A DNA stretch of 64,000 nucleotides from Myxococcota bacterium. Lineage in GTDB: Bacteria > Myxococcota_A > UBA796 > CAJQPC01. This document shows, piece after piece, positions 2,195-13,356 of the stretch (within the stretch, counting starts at the first letter, position 1; each line of letters starts with the position of its first letter). The notes below the pieces were generated by a model. It was not told the origin of the DNA and searched no databases. It worked only from the letters and a program-made list of their open reading frames with translations. The stretch lies in assembly GCA_036229005.1 (NCBI GenBank), contig JAZAMN010000016.1, positions 64,001 to 128,000 of the forward strand. Reading direction: 5' to 3'. The position numbers were made by a program, and so were the translations under genes.

Positions 2195-4831
<2,637 letters not shown>

Positions 4832-5870: not shown

Positions 5871-7700
5871 TCACTCCCCCTCCGACTCCTGCAGCGCCGC
5901 CCAGATCCTCTGCGCCGACCCCGCCCCGATCCCCGGCACCTGGGCGATCTCATCCGCGCTGGCCGCCTTCACCTTCTTGAGGCTCCCAAAGTGCGTCAGC
6001 AGCGCCTTGCGCCGCTTGGCCCCCACCCCCGGCAGGCCCTCCAGCATGCTGCCCAGCGCCGACTTGCGCCGCACACGCCGGTGGAAGCTGATCGCGAAGC
6101 GGTGGCTCTCGTTGCGGATGTGCCGCAGCACGTTGAGCGCGGGGTGGTTGTCCGGCAGGCGGATGGGCTCGTCCCAGTCGGGCAGGATGATCTTGTCCAC
6201 CGCGTCGAACTCGCCCCGGCGCTTCTCGGTGCGGGGCTTGGCCAGGCCGATCACGGGCTGGTCCTCCATGCCCAGGCCGGCCAGCACGTCCAACGCCACG
6301 TTGAGCTGCCCGCGCCCCCCGTCCACCACCAGCAGGTCGGGGAACACGCCCTCGTCGGCGGCCCGGCGGAAGCGGCGGCCCAGGACCTCGGCCATGCTGG
6401 CGTAGTCGTCCGGCCCCACGACCGTCTTGATGCGGTAGTGCCGGTAGTGCTTCTTGGCGGGGGCGCCGTCCAGGAACACCACGCAGCTCGCCACGGGGCT
6501 CTCGCCCTGGATGTTCGAGTTGTCCACGCACTCGATGCGGTGGGGGGGCGCGTCCAGCTCCAGCAGCTCGGCCAGGGCGCTCAGGGCGTAGTCCCGCCGC
6601 TCCTGGGCGCTGACCCGCCGGCGGTAGCGGTCCCGGGCGTTCTGGGCCGCCAGCTCCATCATCCGGGCCTTGTCGCCGCGCTGGGGCACCCGCACGACCA
6701 CCTTGGTGCCGCGGCGCTCACTGAGCACCTCGCTGAGGGCGTCGTGGTCCGCGGGGAGCTCGGGCAGCAAGATCTCCGGCGGTGGGAGGTCCTCGTCCGA
6801 GTAGAAGGCATTCACCCACCCGCTCAAGAGCTCGGCGGTCTCATCCCCCCGGCCCTCGAAGCGAAAGTGCGTGGGCTCCTTGATCTGCCCCTGCCGCACC
6901 GGCAGCACGCACACGTTGCCGCGGTCGCCCTCGCGGAAGAGCCCCCAGACGTCCCGCTCGCCCAGGCGCCGGTCCACCACCTTCTGCTGCTCCAGGGTGG
7001 CCTGGATCTCCCGGATCTGGTCCCGCAGCCGCGCGGCCTCCTCGAAGCGCTCGGCCTCGGCCGCCGCCAGCATGCGCTCCTGCAGGCGGTTCACCAGGTC
7101 CTGGCGCTTGCCCCCCAGCAGCAGCATGCTCTCGGCCACCAGGGCGTCGTAGTCCTCGCGGGTGGTCAGCCCCTCCACGCAGGGCCCCACACAACGGCCC
7201 ATCTGGTGCAGCATGCAGGGGGTCTTGCGGCTGGCCAGCACCTGGTCGCTGCAGGTGCGCAGAGGGAAGCTGCGCTGCAGCCAGGCCAGGGTGCGCCGGG
7301 CCTTCTGGGCGCTGGAGTAGGGGCCAAAGGTCTTCACCCCCGGCCGGATCTGACGCACCAGCGTGTAGCGCGGCCAGGGCGCCTTGGGGTCGATGGCCAG
7401 GTGCAGGAAGTTCTTGTCGTCCCGCAGCTTGACGTTGAAGGGCGGCCGGTGCTGCTTGATCAGCGAGTTCTCAAGGATCAACGCCTCTTTCTCGGTGTTG
7501 ACCACCACCACGTCGATGTCCGCCGCCTGGGCCACCATGTGGGGCACCATCACGCGCTCGTCGTTGCCGCTCAGGTACTGCCGCACGCGGGCGCGCAGGC
7601 TCTTGGCCTTGCCCACGTAGAGCACGTCCCCGCCGGCGTCCTTGAACAGGTACACCCCCGGTCGGGTGGGCAGCTTGCTGGCCTTGTCGTCCAGGCTCAC
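5871..7700 (-). CDS. uvrC: Excinuclease ABC subunit C
   Basis: GIY-YIG start (PGVYLFKD...YVGKAKSLR), Cys-rich region, UVR domain (FEEAARLRD), RNase H-like RIECVDNS/DGGRGQL, C-terminal HhH. Confidence 0.97.
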   Translation of the reverse strand: MSLDDKASKLPTRPGVYLFKDAGGDVLYVGKAKSLRARVRQYLSGNDERVMVPHMVAQAADIDVVVVNTEKEALILENSLIKQHRPPFNVKLRDDKNFLHLAIDPKAPWPRYTLVRQIRPGVKTFGPYSSAQKARRTLAWLQRSFPLRTCSDQVLASRKTPCMLHQMGRCVGPCVEGLTTREDYDALVAESMLLLGGKRQDLVNRLQERMLAAAEAERFEEAARLRDQIREIQATLEQQKVVDRRLGERDVWGLFREGDRGNVCVLPVRQGQIKEPTHFRFEGRGDETAELLSGWVNAFYSDEDLPPPEILLPELPADHDALSEVLSERRGTKVVVRVPQRGDKARMMELAAQNARDRYRRRVSAQERRDYALSALAELLELDAPPHRIECVDNSNIQGESPVASCVVFLDGAPAKKHYRHYRIKTVVGPDDYASMAEVLGRRFRRAADEGVFPDLLVVDGGRGQLNVALDVLAGLGMEDQPVIGLAKPRTEKRRGEFDAVDKIILPDWDEPIRLPDNHPALNVLRHIRNESHRFAISFHRRVRRKSALGSMLEGLPGVGAKRRKALLTHFGSLKKVKAASADEIAQVPGIGAGSAQRIWAALQESEGE

Positions 7701-7704
7701 GCGC

Positions 7705-7998
7705 TCAGCTCAGCCCCGGGCGGTTGTGCTTGTAGCGCTCGGCCAGCCAGCCCGCGTACCAGCTCGGCCAGTCGGCCCCCGGCGCCAGCGCCTTCTGGTC
7801 CAGATCGGCCTGCACCAGCAGGTACACCGTCATGCTCTTGGTGAGCTGGGCCGAAAGCAGCTCGCCCAGGCGCGGGTGCAGCAGCTCGGCCATGATCAGC
7901 GGCCACTCCAGAGGGGCGGCGCCGTGGTCCTGCTCCATCTGTTGGCTCACCTCTCTGAGCAGGCCAGCGAGCTGCGCGATCCAGGCATCGGTGTCCAT
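7705..7998 (-). CDS. Small hypothetical protein
   Basis: 97-aa ORF coupled to the upstream sulfatase gene and 4 nt from the uvrC start. Confidence 0.7.
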   Translation of the reverse strand: MDTDAWIAQLAGLLREVSQQMEQDHGAAPLEWPLIMAELLHPRLGELLSAQLTKSMTVYLLVQADLDQKALAPGADWPSWYAGWLAERYKHNRPGLS

Positions 7999-9140
7999 CA
8001 GCGAGGTGCTCCTTGCGTGGTGTAGCCCAGCGCCGCGCCCTTCTCCAAGTCGCCGGGCAGCGCGCCGGCCTCGGGTCGGGGGTAGCCCTCCAGCGCGCGC
8101 GCCAGCATGGGGTCACCATAGCCCCCGACGCCCGGCCGATCGCGGTACATGCCGCCGGCCTCGCCGAACGCCACGCGGTCCTTGCCCAGCACGCCCTCGG
8201 GGCTGCAGCCGGGCGCGCACTGCGCCTCACAGAGGCCGGACTCGCCCAGCCAGACCTCGCGGGTGGAGAGATCCAGCACGCCGCGCGTGGGGGCCTGGAC
8301 CCCAGAGAGGTGCAGCAGGGTGTCCCGAAGATCCGTCAGCCCCACCATGTCATCCCGGACCCCGGGCTGGACGCTGGGCCCGGAGACCACCATGGGCACC
8401 CGCAGGACCATGGGGCTGGAGGACACCGCGTGGCGCCAGGAGCAGGGCTCTTCGGTCAGGACCTCGCCGTGGTCGGCGGTGAGCACGATGTGCGCGCCCC
8501 GCTGTTGCGCGGCGGTGTAGAGCGGGCCCAGGATGCGGTCGGCGGCGTGGACCTCGCCCCGGTAGTTGAGGACCTCGGGGTCGGGGGCGGGCTGCTTGGA
8601 GGCGGCGGCCAGGTCGGCGGCCGGCGGCGTGTAGGGGCCGTGGGGCTCGTAGACATGCACCCAGGCGAACCACGGGCCCTGCTGCTCCGCGATCCAGGCA
8701 AGCGCCTCGTTGACGGCGAGCTCCCCGCTGCGCTCCCCCTGCTCCGGTCCGGAGAACACATCAAAGCCCTGGTCCAGGCCGGCGTCCCCGGCGACCGGGT
8801 AGGCACTCACGAAGCCCCCCGTCGCGATCCCCTGGGCCTGCAGCGTCTCCGCCACGGTCTCGAAGGAGGGAGCGAGCTGGTAGCCATGGTGGTTGTTGCC
8901 CCGAACACCGTGCACCGGGGGGAGCAGCCCCGTGAACAGGCTCGCGTGCGCCGGCGAGGTCAACCCGATGGGGCTCCACGCGTTGCGGAAGCTCAGCCCG
9001 CCGTCCGCGAGCGCCCAGGCGTTGGGGCTCCAGTCGGGGTGCAGGCTGTCGCTGCGCCAGGTGTCGACGGTCACCAGCAGCACCCCTGGGGGGGCCGGCG
9101 GGGGCTTGGGCTGGCAGGCCAGCAGCAGGGTCAGGAGCAT
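7998..9140 (-). CDS. Sulfatase-like / alkaline phosphatase superfamily lipoprotein
   Basis: LLA-C lipobox; LLVTVDTWRSD, TSPAHASLFTG, WVHVYEPHGPY, TADHGE motifs. Confidence 0.88.
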   Translation of the reverse strand: MLLTLLLACQPKPPPAPPGVLLVTVDTWRSDSLHPDWSPNAWALADGGLSFRNAWSPIGLTSPAHASLFTGLLPPVHGVRGNNHHGYQLAPSFETVAETLQAQGIATGGFVSAYPVAGDAGLDQGFDVFSGPEQGERSGELAVNEALAWIAEQQGPWFAWVHVYEPHGPYTPPAADLAAASKQPAPDPEVLNYRGEVHAADRILGPLYTAAQQRGAHIVLTADHGEVLTEEPCSWRHAVSSSPMVLRVPMVVSGPSVQPGVRDDMVGLTDLRDTLLHLSGVQAPTRGVLDLSTREVWLGESGLCEAQCAPGCSPEGVLGKDRVAFGEAGGMYRDRPGVGGYGDPMLARALEGYPRPEAGALPGDLEKGAALGYTTQGAPR

Positions 9141-9159: not shown

Positions 9160-11016
9160 TCACTCGGCGAGGGCGCCCTCCAGCACCAGGCGCAGCTCCT
9201 CGATGTCGTGGACGTTGTTGTAGTAGAGCAGCTTGCCCTGGGCGTCGACCACGTAGGTCTGGGGGTAGGCCGCCGTGGGGAACGCCATGGTCTGCTGGTA
9301 CTGGCCCTGCACCTTGCGGCCCGGATCCACCAGGATGGGCAGCGAGAGGTCGAAGGCCTCCCGGAACTCGCCCAGGAGCTGGGGGTCCTCGTCGGAGATG
9401 GCCCAGAAGCTGACCTGATCGCCCAGCTCGGGGACCAGGATGTCGTCGATGTCCGAGACCTCGGACGGACACACCGGTCACCAGGTGGCGAAGTAGGCCA
9501 ACACCACCGGGTGGCCAAGCTGGTCGCTCAGGCTGTGGCTGTTGCCGTCCAGGTCCTGCAGCACAAAGTCGGGGGCGGGCTGGCCGATGACCGGGTCGTC
9601 CACGCCCGCCTCGATCTCGGCGGTGAACAAGGGCTGGTCGCTGTCGTTGGAGGCCACACAGAGCCCGCCCCGGAAGCCCTCGCCGCCCCCGTAGCTCAGG
9701 CGCAGCCAGCCGACCTCGCCCGGCGCCAGGCTCAGGGAAGAGGCTTCGACCGTCACCCCGCCGTCGGCGCTCGCGCCGCGCAGCTCCAGGGTGTCGCTGC
9801 CCAGGTTCTGGATGCGCAGGGTCTGGGTGCCGCCGTCCACCGGCAGGATGAAGCGGTCGCCCGGCATCTCCAGGTGGGGCGCCTTCACGCTGGGGTCCAC
9901 GGCCACGCTGCGCAGGTAGTTCCAGTCGCCCACGTAGCCTTGGGTGCCCTCGCCCAGGATGCTCAGGGCGAACTGGTCGGTGATCTCCCGGGCCACGGGC
10001 TGCGGGTCCGCGGGGTCGGACACGTCCCAGACCGCGATGCCCTCATTGTCCGCGATCCACAGCAGGCCGCTGTCCGCGCTGGTCATGACCGCGGAGCCGC
10101 CCACCGGGATCAGGGCGACCTGGGTGGGGGCCAGGGGGTCGCTGGTCTCGAACACCGCCACGCCGCCCGCGCCCACCGCGACGAACACCGCGCCGCCGTC
10201 CGCAGACACGTGCAGCGGCCCGCCGCCGTCGACCGGGACCGGCGTGCCCAGAGTGGCCGACTCGCCGCGCAGATCCAGGGGCACCAAGCCCAGAGCGGCG
10301 TCGGCGATGTAGGCCACCCCGTTGTGGGGCGCGGAGATCTCCCAGGGCGCGTCCAGCCCGGCCACGGTCTCCACCAACTCCAAGCGGTCGCTGCTCAGGT
10401 CGAACACTTCGACGCCAACGCCCCGGCGGGTGGTGTAGAGCAGCCCGTCGTGGAAGAGCAGGCCCTCGTAGCCCCAGCCGTTGGCGAAGTGCAGGGGCGT
10501 GACCGCGCTGGGGTCGCTCAGATCCACCAGCTCCAGCCCGCGGTCCCGGTGGCTCAGCACGACGCGCGTGTCCGAGGCCCACTCCGACTTGTAGTAGCGG
10601 CCCATGCGCTCGGGGAAGAAGGACGCGAACTGCGGGTCGCTGGGGTCGGAGACGTCAAAGGGCATCAGCCCGCCCTGGCCGGTGCCCAGGATCCAGTCCC
10701 CGCGCTTGTCCAGGTCCACGATCTCCGCGAAGGTCTCCCCGGGCACGTCCTGGCCCTTGTAGACCGCGGCCAGCTCCACCAAGGGGTCTCCGGCCAGGTC
10801 CGTGGGCGGCTCGCAGCCAGAGGCCAGGGCCTGCCACTGGATCGGCGTCCCGGTGTCCTCGCCGGTGTCATCCGGTGTCGAGGTGTCGTCGGGCCCACCG
10901 GTCTCGGCGGTGTCCCCACCCGTGTTGGCCGCCACGCACTCCTCCCCCACCAGCAGCTCCCCCTCTTGGCAGGGGAAGCGCTGACAGGCGGGCAGGGACA
11001 GGGCGAGCCACAGCAT
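9160..11016 (-). CDS. Predicted selenoprotein (618 aa): lipoprotein, LVIVD-type beta-propeller + Ig-like domain + redoxin (AhpC/TSA/TlpA-like) domain with UxxC motif; Sec codon at 9478-9480
   Basis: ORF 9478..11016 ends APDFVLQDLDGNSHSLSDQLGHPVVLAYFATW-TGA and the same frame continues P-V-C-PSEV... (ORF 9160..9474) completing the thioredoxin fold (AISDED, YPQTYVVDAQGKL). Confidence 0.88.
9451..9466 (-). promoter_or_regulatory. Candidate bacterial SECIS hairpin
   Basis: mRNA sense GUCCGA-GGUC-UCGGAC: 6-bp stem, loop starting with G, beginning 11 nt after the UGA. Confidence 0.7.
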
Positions 11017-11857: not shown

Positions 11858-12418
11858 ATGGTCCTGCTCGCCCTCTCTCTGTCCTCCGCCAGCGCGATGG
11901 AGGTCCGCGACCGCTGGGACCCCGAGCACCCCATCGCCCTGGGCAGCCGCGCCGCGCTCTGGCAGGCCGACTACCGCGCCCCGGGGGTGGGCGGACAGCT
12001 CCACTACCAGCCCTGGCAGCGCCTGGGGGTCGAGGGCTTCTGGAACAGCTTCGCCCTGCCCGAGGCGGGCCTTCTGCGGCACGACCACGTCATCGGGTTC
12101 CACCTCTACAGCCCGTGGCTTGGTGGTGCTCGGCGCTGGGTCGGCCCAACATTCGGGAGCTGCGTGGACTTCCGCTTCCTGTCTCCTCTGGGCACCGACG
12201 AGGCACTGCCGGGCCAGTCCGACATCCTCTTTGGCGTGCACACCGGCCTGATGGGCATGGCCTACCTCTTTGGGGGCTGGTCCCTGCAGACCACCGTCGA
12301 GGTCTTTGGCTACTGGGGCAACCAGGCCAAGGTCGACGGCTGGGCGGCCACGGCCTCCAACCAGCTCCACTTCCAGCCGGTGCTGCAGGGCTCGGTGGGG
12401 CTCAACCATTGGTTCTGA
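11858..12418 (+). CDS. Secreted protein, probable small outer-membrane beta-barrel
   Basis: Signal ending SASA; alternating amphipathic strands; C-terminal GSVGLNHWF ending in an aromatic residue. Confidence 0.65.
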   Translation: MVLLALSLSSASAMEVRDRWDPEHPIALGSRAALWQADYRAPGVGGQLHYQPWQRLGVEGFWNSFALPEAGLLRHDHVIGFHLYSPWLGGARRWVGPTFGSCVDFRFLSPLGTDEALPGQSDILFGVHTGLMGMAYLFGGWSLQTTVEVFGYWGNQAKVDGWAATASNQLHFQPVLQGSVGLNHWF

Positions 12419-13356
12419 GCCTGCTGCTGGCCTGCGCCCCCGACTCGGTGGGCGCGCTCTCCGACCAGTGCGCCGACTGCCACGCCACCCAGGCCGACGC
12501 CCTGGCCGCCAGCACGCTCTCCCGCGAGGCCCCCACCGCGCTCTTCACCGCCCTGCAGGCCCAAGCCGCCGCCCTCCACGGCCCCTCCGCGGCCGCCCAG
12601 TGTGACGCCTGTCATGCGCCCGTCGTGGGGCACCAGGGGGGCCTGAGCTGCGCGAGCTGCCACGCCGCCGTCGGCCACCGCGCGCCGGAGAATGGAGCGC
12701 TCATCCACGAGCTCTGGGGGCCTGTGTTGGGCACGGAGAGCCTGTCCTCGCCGGCGCACAGGGTGCAGTCCAGTGTCTTCCTGGGCGACCCGGCCCTCTG
12801 CGGTACATGCCACGAGCTCCAGGGCCCAGCGGCCCTCTCCGAGACCCCCTACACCCACTGGCGGGACAGCCCCGCGGCCCAGGACGGCGTCGGCTGCGCG
12901 GACTGCCACATGCCCCAGGGCGACCACAGCTTCCCCGGCCTGAACGGCGACCGCGACACCGCCCTCTCCCTGCTCCGCGAGGCCGCCGAGCTCGAGCGCA
13001 TCCCCGGCGGCGTGCGCCTCCACAACCGCAACCCCGGCCACGCCCTGCCCGACGGCGCGGCCTTCACCCGGCGGCTGGTCCTGCAGTGGCGCTTGGACGG
13101 GCAGGTGCTGGGCGAGCACAGCCTGACCCCCAGCTACCGGGACGGCCAGGGGGAGGAGATCCACAGCCCTCTGGCCGCCGCAGCCCACCAAGACAACAGC
13201 ATCCCCGCTGGCCAATCCCGGGACTTCTTCCCCCCAAGCGAGGTCACCCCGGCGCAGGCCTGCCTGGTCTTTCAGCAGCAGGATCCGGCGCGGCTCGCGG
13301 AGCGGGGGCGGCCCGCGGCGGGGGGGGTGGGGGAGGTGGGGTGTTTGGGGTGGTGA
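12409..13356 (+). CDS. Pentaheme c-type cytochrome lipoprotein (c554/c552-like multiheme family)
   Basis: Five CxxCH motifs (CADCH, CDACH, CASCH, CGTCH, CADCH), plus HSFPG and GHALPDG; TTG start at 12409 overlapping the upstream gene; LLLA-C lipobox. Confidence 0.85.
   Translation: MVLSLLLACAPDSVGALSDQCADCHATQADALAASTLSREAPTALFTALQAQAAALHGPSAAAQCDACHAPVVGHQGGLSCASCHAAVGHRAPENGALIHELWGPVLGTESLSSPAHRVQSSVFLGDPALCGTCHELQGPAALSETPYTHWRDSPAAQDGVGCADCHMPQGDHSFPGLNGDRDTALSLLREAAELERIPGGVRLHNRNPGHALPDGAAFTRRLVLQWRLDGQVLGEHSLTPSYRDGQGEEIHSPLAAAAHQDNSIPAGQSRDFFPPSEVTPAQACLVFQQQDPARLAERGRPAAGGVGEVGCLGW

Follow-up and report, generated by a model that had tools for sequence, protein, structure and literature searches.

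In bacteria, selenocysteine (Sec) is inserted when SelB binds an RNA hairpin and delivers Sec-tRNA at a UGA codon. The closest described relatives of the protein analysed here belong to Prx-like 3, or "Redoxin family protein", which comprises predicted UxxC selenoproteins of Pfam family PF08534 (PMC2398784 Table 2 and Dataset S1; PMC13188914 Table 1). In the parts of PMC2398784 consulted, two GOS reads of 2008, JCVI_READ_1093018267852 and JCVI_READ_1093017166979, carry the peptide AYFATWUPVCPSEVSDI. Both stand just before the "Prx-like UGC-containing" header, and their assignment to Prx-like 3 is by this position (PMC2398784). The catalogue in PMC13188914, as far as covered, holds 119 selenoprotein families, including Prx-like and Redoxin-family UxxC proteins. 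The locus described below shares the redoxin part of these proteins and places it at the end of a much larger architecture.

Results

A gene interrupted by an in-frame TGA

A sequence-only reading of the window (the whole stretch of DNA that was analysed, 64,000 nucleotides) had proposed a hidden selenoprotein gene at 9160..11016. The location is real, and the strand, which that reading had left unstated, is minus. The gene begins with an ATG at 11016 and has 512 codons up to ...GHPVVLAYFATW, with VVLAYFATW as the last residues of the first frame, followed by a TGA at 9480–9478. Past this codon the same frame continues with CCG GTG TGT, with 105 codons before the terminal TGA at 9162–9160, and GC3 is 0.96 upstream of TGA513 and 0.97 downstream. 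The read-through product, supported by the sequence and by homologue alignments, is a 618-residue protein with W512-U513-P-V-C516. Pfam models match across the TGA: AhpC-TSA covers residues 477–598 (83 bits against a cut-off of 26) and Redoxin PF08534 covers residues 478–606 (62 bits against a cut-off of 26.6). TGA513 occupies the first-Cys position of the W-x-P-V-C site of TlpA/ResA-like proteins. Both the stop at the first Cys of a redoxin and the continuation into W-U-P-V-C had been described correctly from the sequence.

Assembly error does not account for the TGA. In public run X1, a contig is identical to 9269–9599 with 0 differing letters, and it shows TGA rather than TGC or TGT; X1 may itself be the source sample. 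Two further studies supplied runs X2 and X3, in each of which a single contig covers the whole gene; they show 43 and 35 differences, respectively, and among the 40 differences listed none falls on the TGA codon. The three best-matching public runs are labelled marine or seawater metagenomes; among the public runs listed, no RNA run carried the gene.

Homologues of the family include 30 loci (L023–L052). The alignment of L051 stops short of residue 513, and 31 alignments, those of 30 homologues and of the gene itself, span it. All 31 carry TGA at this residue in a W-U-P-x-C context, with identities of 35–59%, and so the codon is not there by chance. The GTG that follows the TGA could start a 104-aa ORF (9474..9160). 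In that alignment column 21 codons encode Val and just two of them are GTG, and no conserved start codon follows the TGA in the aligned homologues. The possibility that homologues are consistently two genes, raised as a refutation of read-through, was thus answered by homologues that form one frame and by Cys forms that are continuous.

Cys homologues and database truncation

Scanning 185,579 species genomes with a Cys pattern yielded 25 loci, among which L053 alone is full length. The L053 protein carries W-C-P-V-C and shows 33% identity, and its genome also has TGA copies and selA. We also searched 1.84 billion representatives with an HMM and examined the best 150, of which 84 are shorter than 800 aa and therefore of family size. 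Among these 84, 74 end at the residue before 513, eight are full length with W-C-x-x-C and two are full length without the redox motif; the other 66 of the best 150 are long LVIVD-repeat proteins. The 74 truncated proteins, known from their protein sequences, agree with the expectation that standard gene callers would split the gene in two. The two members that lack the redox motif keep the propeller, which indicates that redox chemistry is not essential in every copy. Full-length Cys forms emerged from the HMM search and from the Cys-pattern scan, whereas two word-indexed protein searches missed them.

The genome carrying the window (G000) encodes a distant paralogue with G-C-P-V-C on contig C25 (34247–35945, minus strand). 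It has a lipoprotein-like start, a diverged propeller, an Ig domain and a redoxin, and lacks the family hairpin described below. Its best match is L118 in genome G018 (33%), which has TGA at that site. The Cys/TGA pairs that had been suggested as a check are represented by L053, the eight representatives and the C25 paralogue on one side and by the 31 TGA alignments on the other. On a quick tree of 65 rows, built from the part before the codon and rooted at the midpoint, nine Cys rows need five changes, and well-supported branches force at least four Sec/Cys changes, with the Cys forms scattered. Repeated change from Sec to Cys would be the simple reading of this tree. Based on the homologue alignments and the Cys homologues, the TGA at 9478..9480 (minus strand) very probably encodes selenocysteine 513.

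A SECIS-like hairpin within the coding region

We identified a bSECIS-like hairpin at 9451..9466 (minus strand), with a 6-bp stem and a GGUC loop (9460–9457) that begins 17 bases past UGA513. The bSECIS model, as set out in the part of PMC13188914 consulted, has a loop of 3–9 nt with a G within its two leading positions, a stem of 4–16 bp, a distance of 16–37 nt from the UGA and an MFE of at most -7.5. The hairpin agrees with this model (4-nt loop, 6-bp stem, 17 nt, and an MFE of -24.7 over 60 nt). Its folding energy compared with shuffles gave z values of -0.3 to -1.7 and, for one folded segment, +0.5, none of them significant. Because stability does not exceed that of shuffles, the case for the hairpin rests on conservation and covariation.

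In 29 sequences, 174 of 174 stem cells are paired, and two pairs show two-sided changes. Slid controls pair at 17–51%, and 0 of 500 shuffles scored as high, a count that is not a probability because related sequences are not independent. Codon usage is restricted in the same region: V520 is GTC in 29/29 sequences, whereas Val codons elsewhere have a mean diversity of 0.54, and S518 and S521 have codon diversities of 0.20 and 0.13, compared with a Ser mean of 0.72. Subfamily B comprises 14 distant paralogues selected for a different downstream peptide. Here 83 of 84 cells are paired. Two-sided changes occur at four pairs, in some cases altering amino acids; the stem has a different sequence and is shifted by one base, and the G remains at the same position 21. 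The two Cys forms for which DNA is available, L053 and the C25 paralogue, lack the family stem sequence, and all eight Cys proteins show a relaxed S-E-V-S-D peptide. We infer that the residues after the active site are fixed by RNA structure more than by the needs of the protein.

Selenocysteine machinery in the genome and the order

Genome G000 (6.4 Mb, 70% GC, 94% complete) encodes selA (478 bits), selB (340 bits) and selD (280 bits), all above cut-off. It also has one tRNA-Sec(TCA) (64.7 bits), which is the only tRNA with a TCA anticodon among 52. All four components that had been named as a check are present. Together with the conserved TGA, the covarying hairpin and the Sec/Cys homologue pairs, they bear out the proposal of a hidden selenoprotein.

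Across the order, a selA match was found in 58 of 61 genomes, 57 of them above cut-off. With selA near-universal, its co-occurrence with the family discriminates little. Genomes G055 and G060 have neither selA nor tRNA-Sec, and their redoxin matches are generic only. In G018, selA was not found; it is probably unassembled, because this genome has tRNA-Sec and TGA copies. On G018 contig C56 (L104), some 2 kb separate the tRNA-Sec at 6595–6695 from a family gene. This adjacency occurred in one of six family loci scanned and was treated as incidental.

The SelD encoded at L010 (G000 contig C35), in an open frame of 770 aa, is a Cys-type protein with a C-G-G-C motif. Cys-type SelD of this kind is described for Ndh-SelD fusions in the portion of PMC2398784 consulted. 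Further candidate in-frame TGA codons in G000 include three U-x-x-C redoxins on the minus strand (C59 15418, C4 17214 and C46 17998), a T-x-x-U peroxiredoxin-like protein (C31 141973, plus strand) and a protein of unclear type (C20 145132, plus strand).

Domain architecture

An AlphaFold2 model of residues 58–618, calculated with a 29-row alignment, reached a pLDDT of 92 and a pTM of 0.92 and consists of a propeller, a beta-sandwich and a thioredoxin fold. Together with the Pfam matches and the homologues, it agrees with the architecture originally proposed, an LVIVD propeller followed by an Ig-like domain and a Sec-redoxin.

The protein starts with a short hydrophobic signal leading to L-P-A-C11 (10984..11016, minus strand), a likely lipoprotein anchor without a basic n-region that is recognised from the sequence and from similar homologue starts. 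Cys11 is preceded by a 10-residue signal that includes nine mostly hydrophobic residues, and L-P-A-C is non-canonical with respect to the lipobox consensus. A loose regular expression detected a lipobox in 83 of 134 truncated homologues. Lipid anchoring at Cys11, from an unusually short signal, appears plausible. Short lipoprotein-like starts without a basic n-region also occur elsewhere in the window, for example at 1556, 2195, 9140 and 15265. In G000 as a whole, 506 starts match a regular expression for Met, 5–10 hydrophobic residues and Ala/Gly/Ser-Cys, a raw count without a shuffle control. The signal is followed by a small Cys16–Cys27 loop and an acidic tether rich in D, T and G (10846..10983, minus strand), seen in the sequence and variable in length and letters among homologues.

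Residues ~75–375 (9892..10794, minus strand) are predicted by Pfam and the model to form a seven-bladed LVIVD beta-propeller. LVIVD matches the N-terminal half at 31 bits (cut-off 20.2), and the modelled propeller superimposes on seven-bladed propellers with Z scores of ~30 and an rmsd of 2.3–2.5 over ~275 residues. These fold matches are generic, at 10–15% identity. We sought a function through the fold search, which chiefly addressed the propeller part, and set this approach aside when only generic propellers matched. Conserved residues in this domain are E98, G113-Q-G-G116, R140, R157, W225, D239, T346 and D364-W365. In the model they appear to be localised at inner-strand starts or in d-a/b-c loops on the top face, which is the face that usually binds ligands.

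The propeller is followed by an Ig-like beta-sandwich of the ASH/HYDIN type, indicated by the model and the homologues (~residues 380–472; 9601..9879, minus strand). It contains an invariant Cys453, and the conserved C68 and C453 may form a disulfide. The C-terminal TlpA/ResA-like redoxin (residues 477–618; 9163..9588, minus strand), identified by Pfam and homologues, has U-P-V-C, Glu519 and Pro585 as invariant features.

Distribution, copy number and neighbourhood

A match at E < 1e-75 is present in all 21 genomes of the same family. In the other families of the order, 21 of 39 genomes reach E < 1e-20, with 0 of 8 in family f3. A strict DNA pattern, which detects subfamily A only, occurs in 24 of 60 genomes within the order; outside the order it occurs in 0 of 18 genomes of the class, and outside the class in 1 of 323 genomes of the phylum. 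Genomes can carry several copies: G008 shows 12 matches with one TGA among the matches listed, seven of them confirmed by the exact DNA pattern, and G015, G019 and G021 contain tandem pairs. Two homologues carry the NCBI name Myxococcota bacterium, and this multicopy family of one order probably belongs to Myxococcota. The three domains recur, with W-U-P-V-C and a long C-terminal tail, in metagenome locus L124, and relatives thus extend further. Its frame at 32–2449 encodes the propeller, the Ig domain, the redoxin and ~370 more residues, the end of which we take to resemble a secretion-sorting domain. ESM Atlas clusters with like features point to Fidelibacterota besides Myxococcota.

Clustering the neighbours of the window and 53 loci, we looked for a conserved operon and found only genus-level or pairwise synteny. 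The same set showed no conserved substrate, metal, cytochrome or cytochrome c maturation genes nearby. A sulfatase-like lipoprotein gene, identified by Pfam and neighbour clustering, lies 20 nt downstream (7998..9140, minus strand). It recurs only in the three loci of the same genus and in a single further locus, and is therefore probably not a functional partner. The encoded protein carries T-S-P-A-H at the site where sulfatases have C/S-x-P-x-R, and it is possibly not a formylglycine enzyme. Elsewhere the window appears to encode an 878-aa protein with repeated C-D-G-x-D-N-D-C motifs (2195–4831, plus strand), a UvrC-like gene (5871–7700, minus strand) and an ORF with several putative C-x-x-C-H haem-binding motifs (~12300–13356, plus strand).

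Discussion

Our analysis leans towards an exported, anchored disulfide reductase or isomerase, in which Sec would be the attacking residue and the propeller would select the substrate. This role is favoured because the nearest solved sequences are of the ResA/TlpA type, the motif differs from that of peroxiredoxins and a DsbD-type domain is encoded (DsbD/CcdA-type PF02683, above cut-off on G000 contig C20). Following the established pathway, SelB would bind the GGUC-loop hairpin and bring Sec-tRNA to UGA513, and the protein would undergo export by the Sec pathway and lipidation at Cys11. By likeness to ResA, TlpA and Etrx, U513 would attack and C516 resolve, and a membrane protein of the DsbD/CcdA type would re-reduce the Sec–Cys pair. 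This pair would reduce or rearrange disulfides of envelope substrates bound by the predicted propeller. The most speculative elements are that the charged and aromatic conserved top face of the propeller would select the substrate and that paralogues with diverged propellers might serve different substrates. No conserved neighbour gene points to a substrate, which counts against a reductase role, as do the two members that lack the motif but retain the propeller.

The scattered Cys forms, with their four or more forced changes on the quick tree, and the two members that keep propeller and Ig without the redox motif would also fit a selenoprotein whose propeller–Ig part acts independently as a surface adhesin or sensor. 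The redoxin would then be a housekeeping protector or switch, and Sec supply would set the ratio of the 512-aa to the 618-aa product. LVIVD propellers do occur in many non-redox proteins, and the top Foldseek matches include sensor ectodomains and an S-layer protein. Set against this, conservation within the family is strongest in the redoxin and the hairpin, and a stop at 512 would leave a quarter of a redoxin domain; we consider an adhesin or sensor rather unlikely.

An exported peroxidase, or a protein that binds or delivers Cu or Hg through its Sec–Cys pair, is improbable. AhpC-TSA is the best Pfam domain score, there are weak matches to PrxQ and MauD models, and TlpA-like proteins can reduce copper chaperones. 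The site itself argues otherwise: F-A-T-W-U-P-V-C is a U-x-x-C site and not the P-x-x-x-T-x-x-U motif given for peroxiredoxins in the part of PMC13188914 consulted. The PrxQ score is 31 bits against a cut-off of 260, and the neighbourhood shows no conserved metal or cytochrome genes.

That the TGA is a true stop, separating two genes or marking a pseudogene or sequencing error, or is read as Trp or Gly, is highly improbable, for although gene callers split the frame there and a GTG-started ORF follows, TGA persists in 31/31 alignments down to 35% identity without a conserved start after it, a split would cut through the active site, continuous homologues have Cys rather than Trp or Gly, the sole TCA-anticodon tRNA is tRNA-Sec and a public contig agrees letter for letter.

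Beyond the favoured role as an anchored disulfide reductase or isomerase, a broader picture can be drawn, which as a whole we regard as doubtful. In it, a surface selenoprotein has multiplied within an uncultured order, probably of Myxococcota, reaching up to a dozen copies in a genome, and every copy combines a variable, ligand-binding propeller with a Sec redox head. A SECIS within the coding region would dictate the residues after the active site and be lost upon the change from Sec to Cys, and UGA read-through would serve as a selenium-dependent switch for the redox head.

The family offers a natural experiment on bacterial SECIS elements, with two stem sequences, a loop G at the same position, compensation that alters amino acids and scattered Cys members. 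It makes testable the requirements of SelB and the constraint that an RNA signal places on an active-site helix. It also exposes a systematic annotation gap, since 74 of the 84 family-size proteins among the best 150 end at the position of the TGA codon. Selenium chemistry in the envelope of marine bacteria would, in turn, bear on the near-universal Sec machinery of the order (selA in 58/61 genomes).

The redoxin resembles ResA, TlpA and Etrx, which are its best solved sequences (E 1e-12 to 1e-9). Common to them are the W-C-x-x-C register, a Glu three residues after the second Cys (Glu519 here), the conserved Pro loop and an N-terminal anchor. In contrast, the present protein has Sec for the first Cys and a 400-residue propeller–Ig insert between anchor and redoxin, and its neighbourhood has no conserved cytochrome c maturation genes. 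Its NCBIfam scores lie far below the cut-offs for ResA (58.9/170), TlpA (21.5/230) and DsbE (26.8/123), and on these scores it resembles ResA, TlpA and DsbE but is not filed as any of their equivalogs. No NCBIfam model of June 2026 is above cut-off for the read-through protein. Proteins that combine LVIVD (PF08309) with an ASH/HYDIN-type Ig domain share features and fold with the N-terminal part in ESM Atlas clusters of 463–509 aa from Myxococcota and Fidelibacterota. These clusters are unnamed and without assigned function, no selenocysteine appears in the names shown, and they are probably the truncated form.

With Prx-like 3 the present redoxin shares the fold and the UxxC motif. The GOS reads, as they appear in the parts of PMC2398784 consulted, cover the redoxin only, without upstream domains, and the fusions in its Figure S1 join other domains. 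In the covered parts of PMC2398784 and PMC13188914, no propeller, Ig domain, lipoprotein signal or paralogue expansion is given for such selenoproteins. The terms "propeller", "lipoprotein" and "Myxococc" are absent from the part of PMC13188914 consulted, as is a propeller–lipoprotein fusion from its 119-family catalogue, and terms for such a fusion are likewise absent from the portion of PMC12013277 covered. Our search of the openly available literature returned no paper joining a selenoprotein with LVIVD and none on the fusion. The suggestion of an undescribed selenoprotein family therefore stands for the whole architecture and not for its Sec-redoxin domain, which the 2008 dataset already contains (PMC2398784, in the parts consulted). 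The lipoprotein–propeller–Ig fusion, its expansion and the two covarying SECIS types appear undescribed, and they add a large, multidomain and probably exported architecture to a catalogue of mostly small-domain bacterial selenoproteins.
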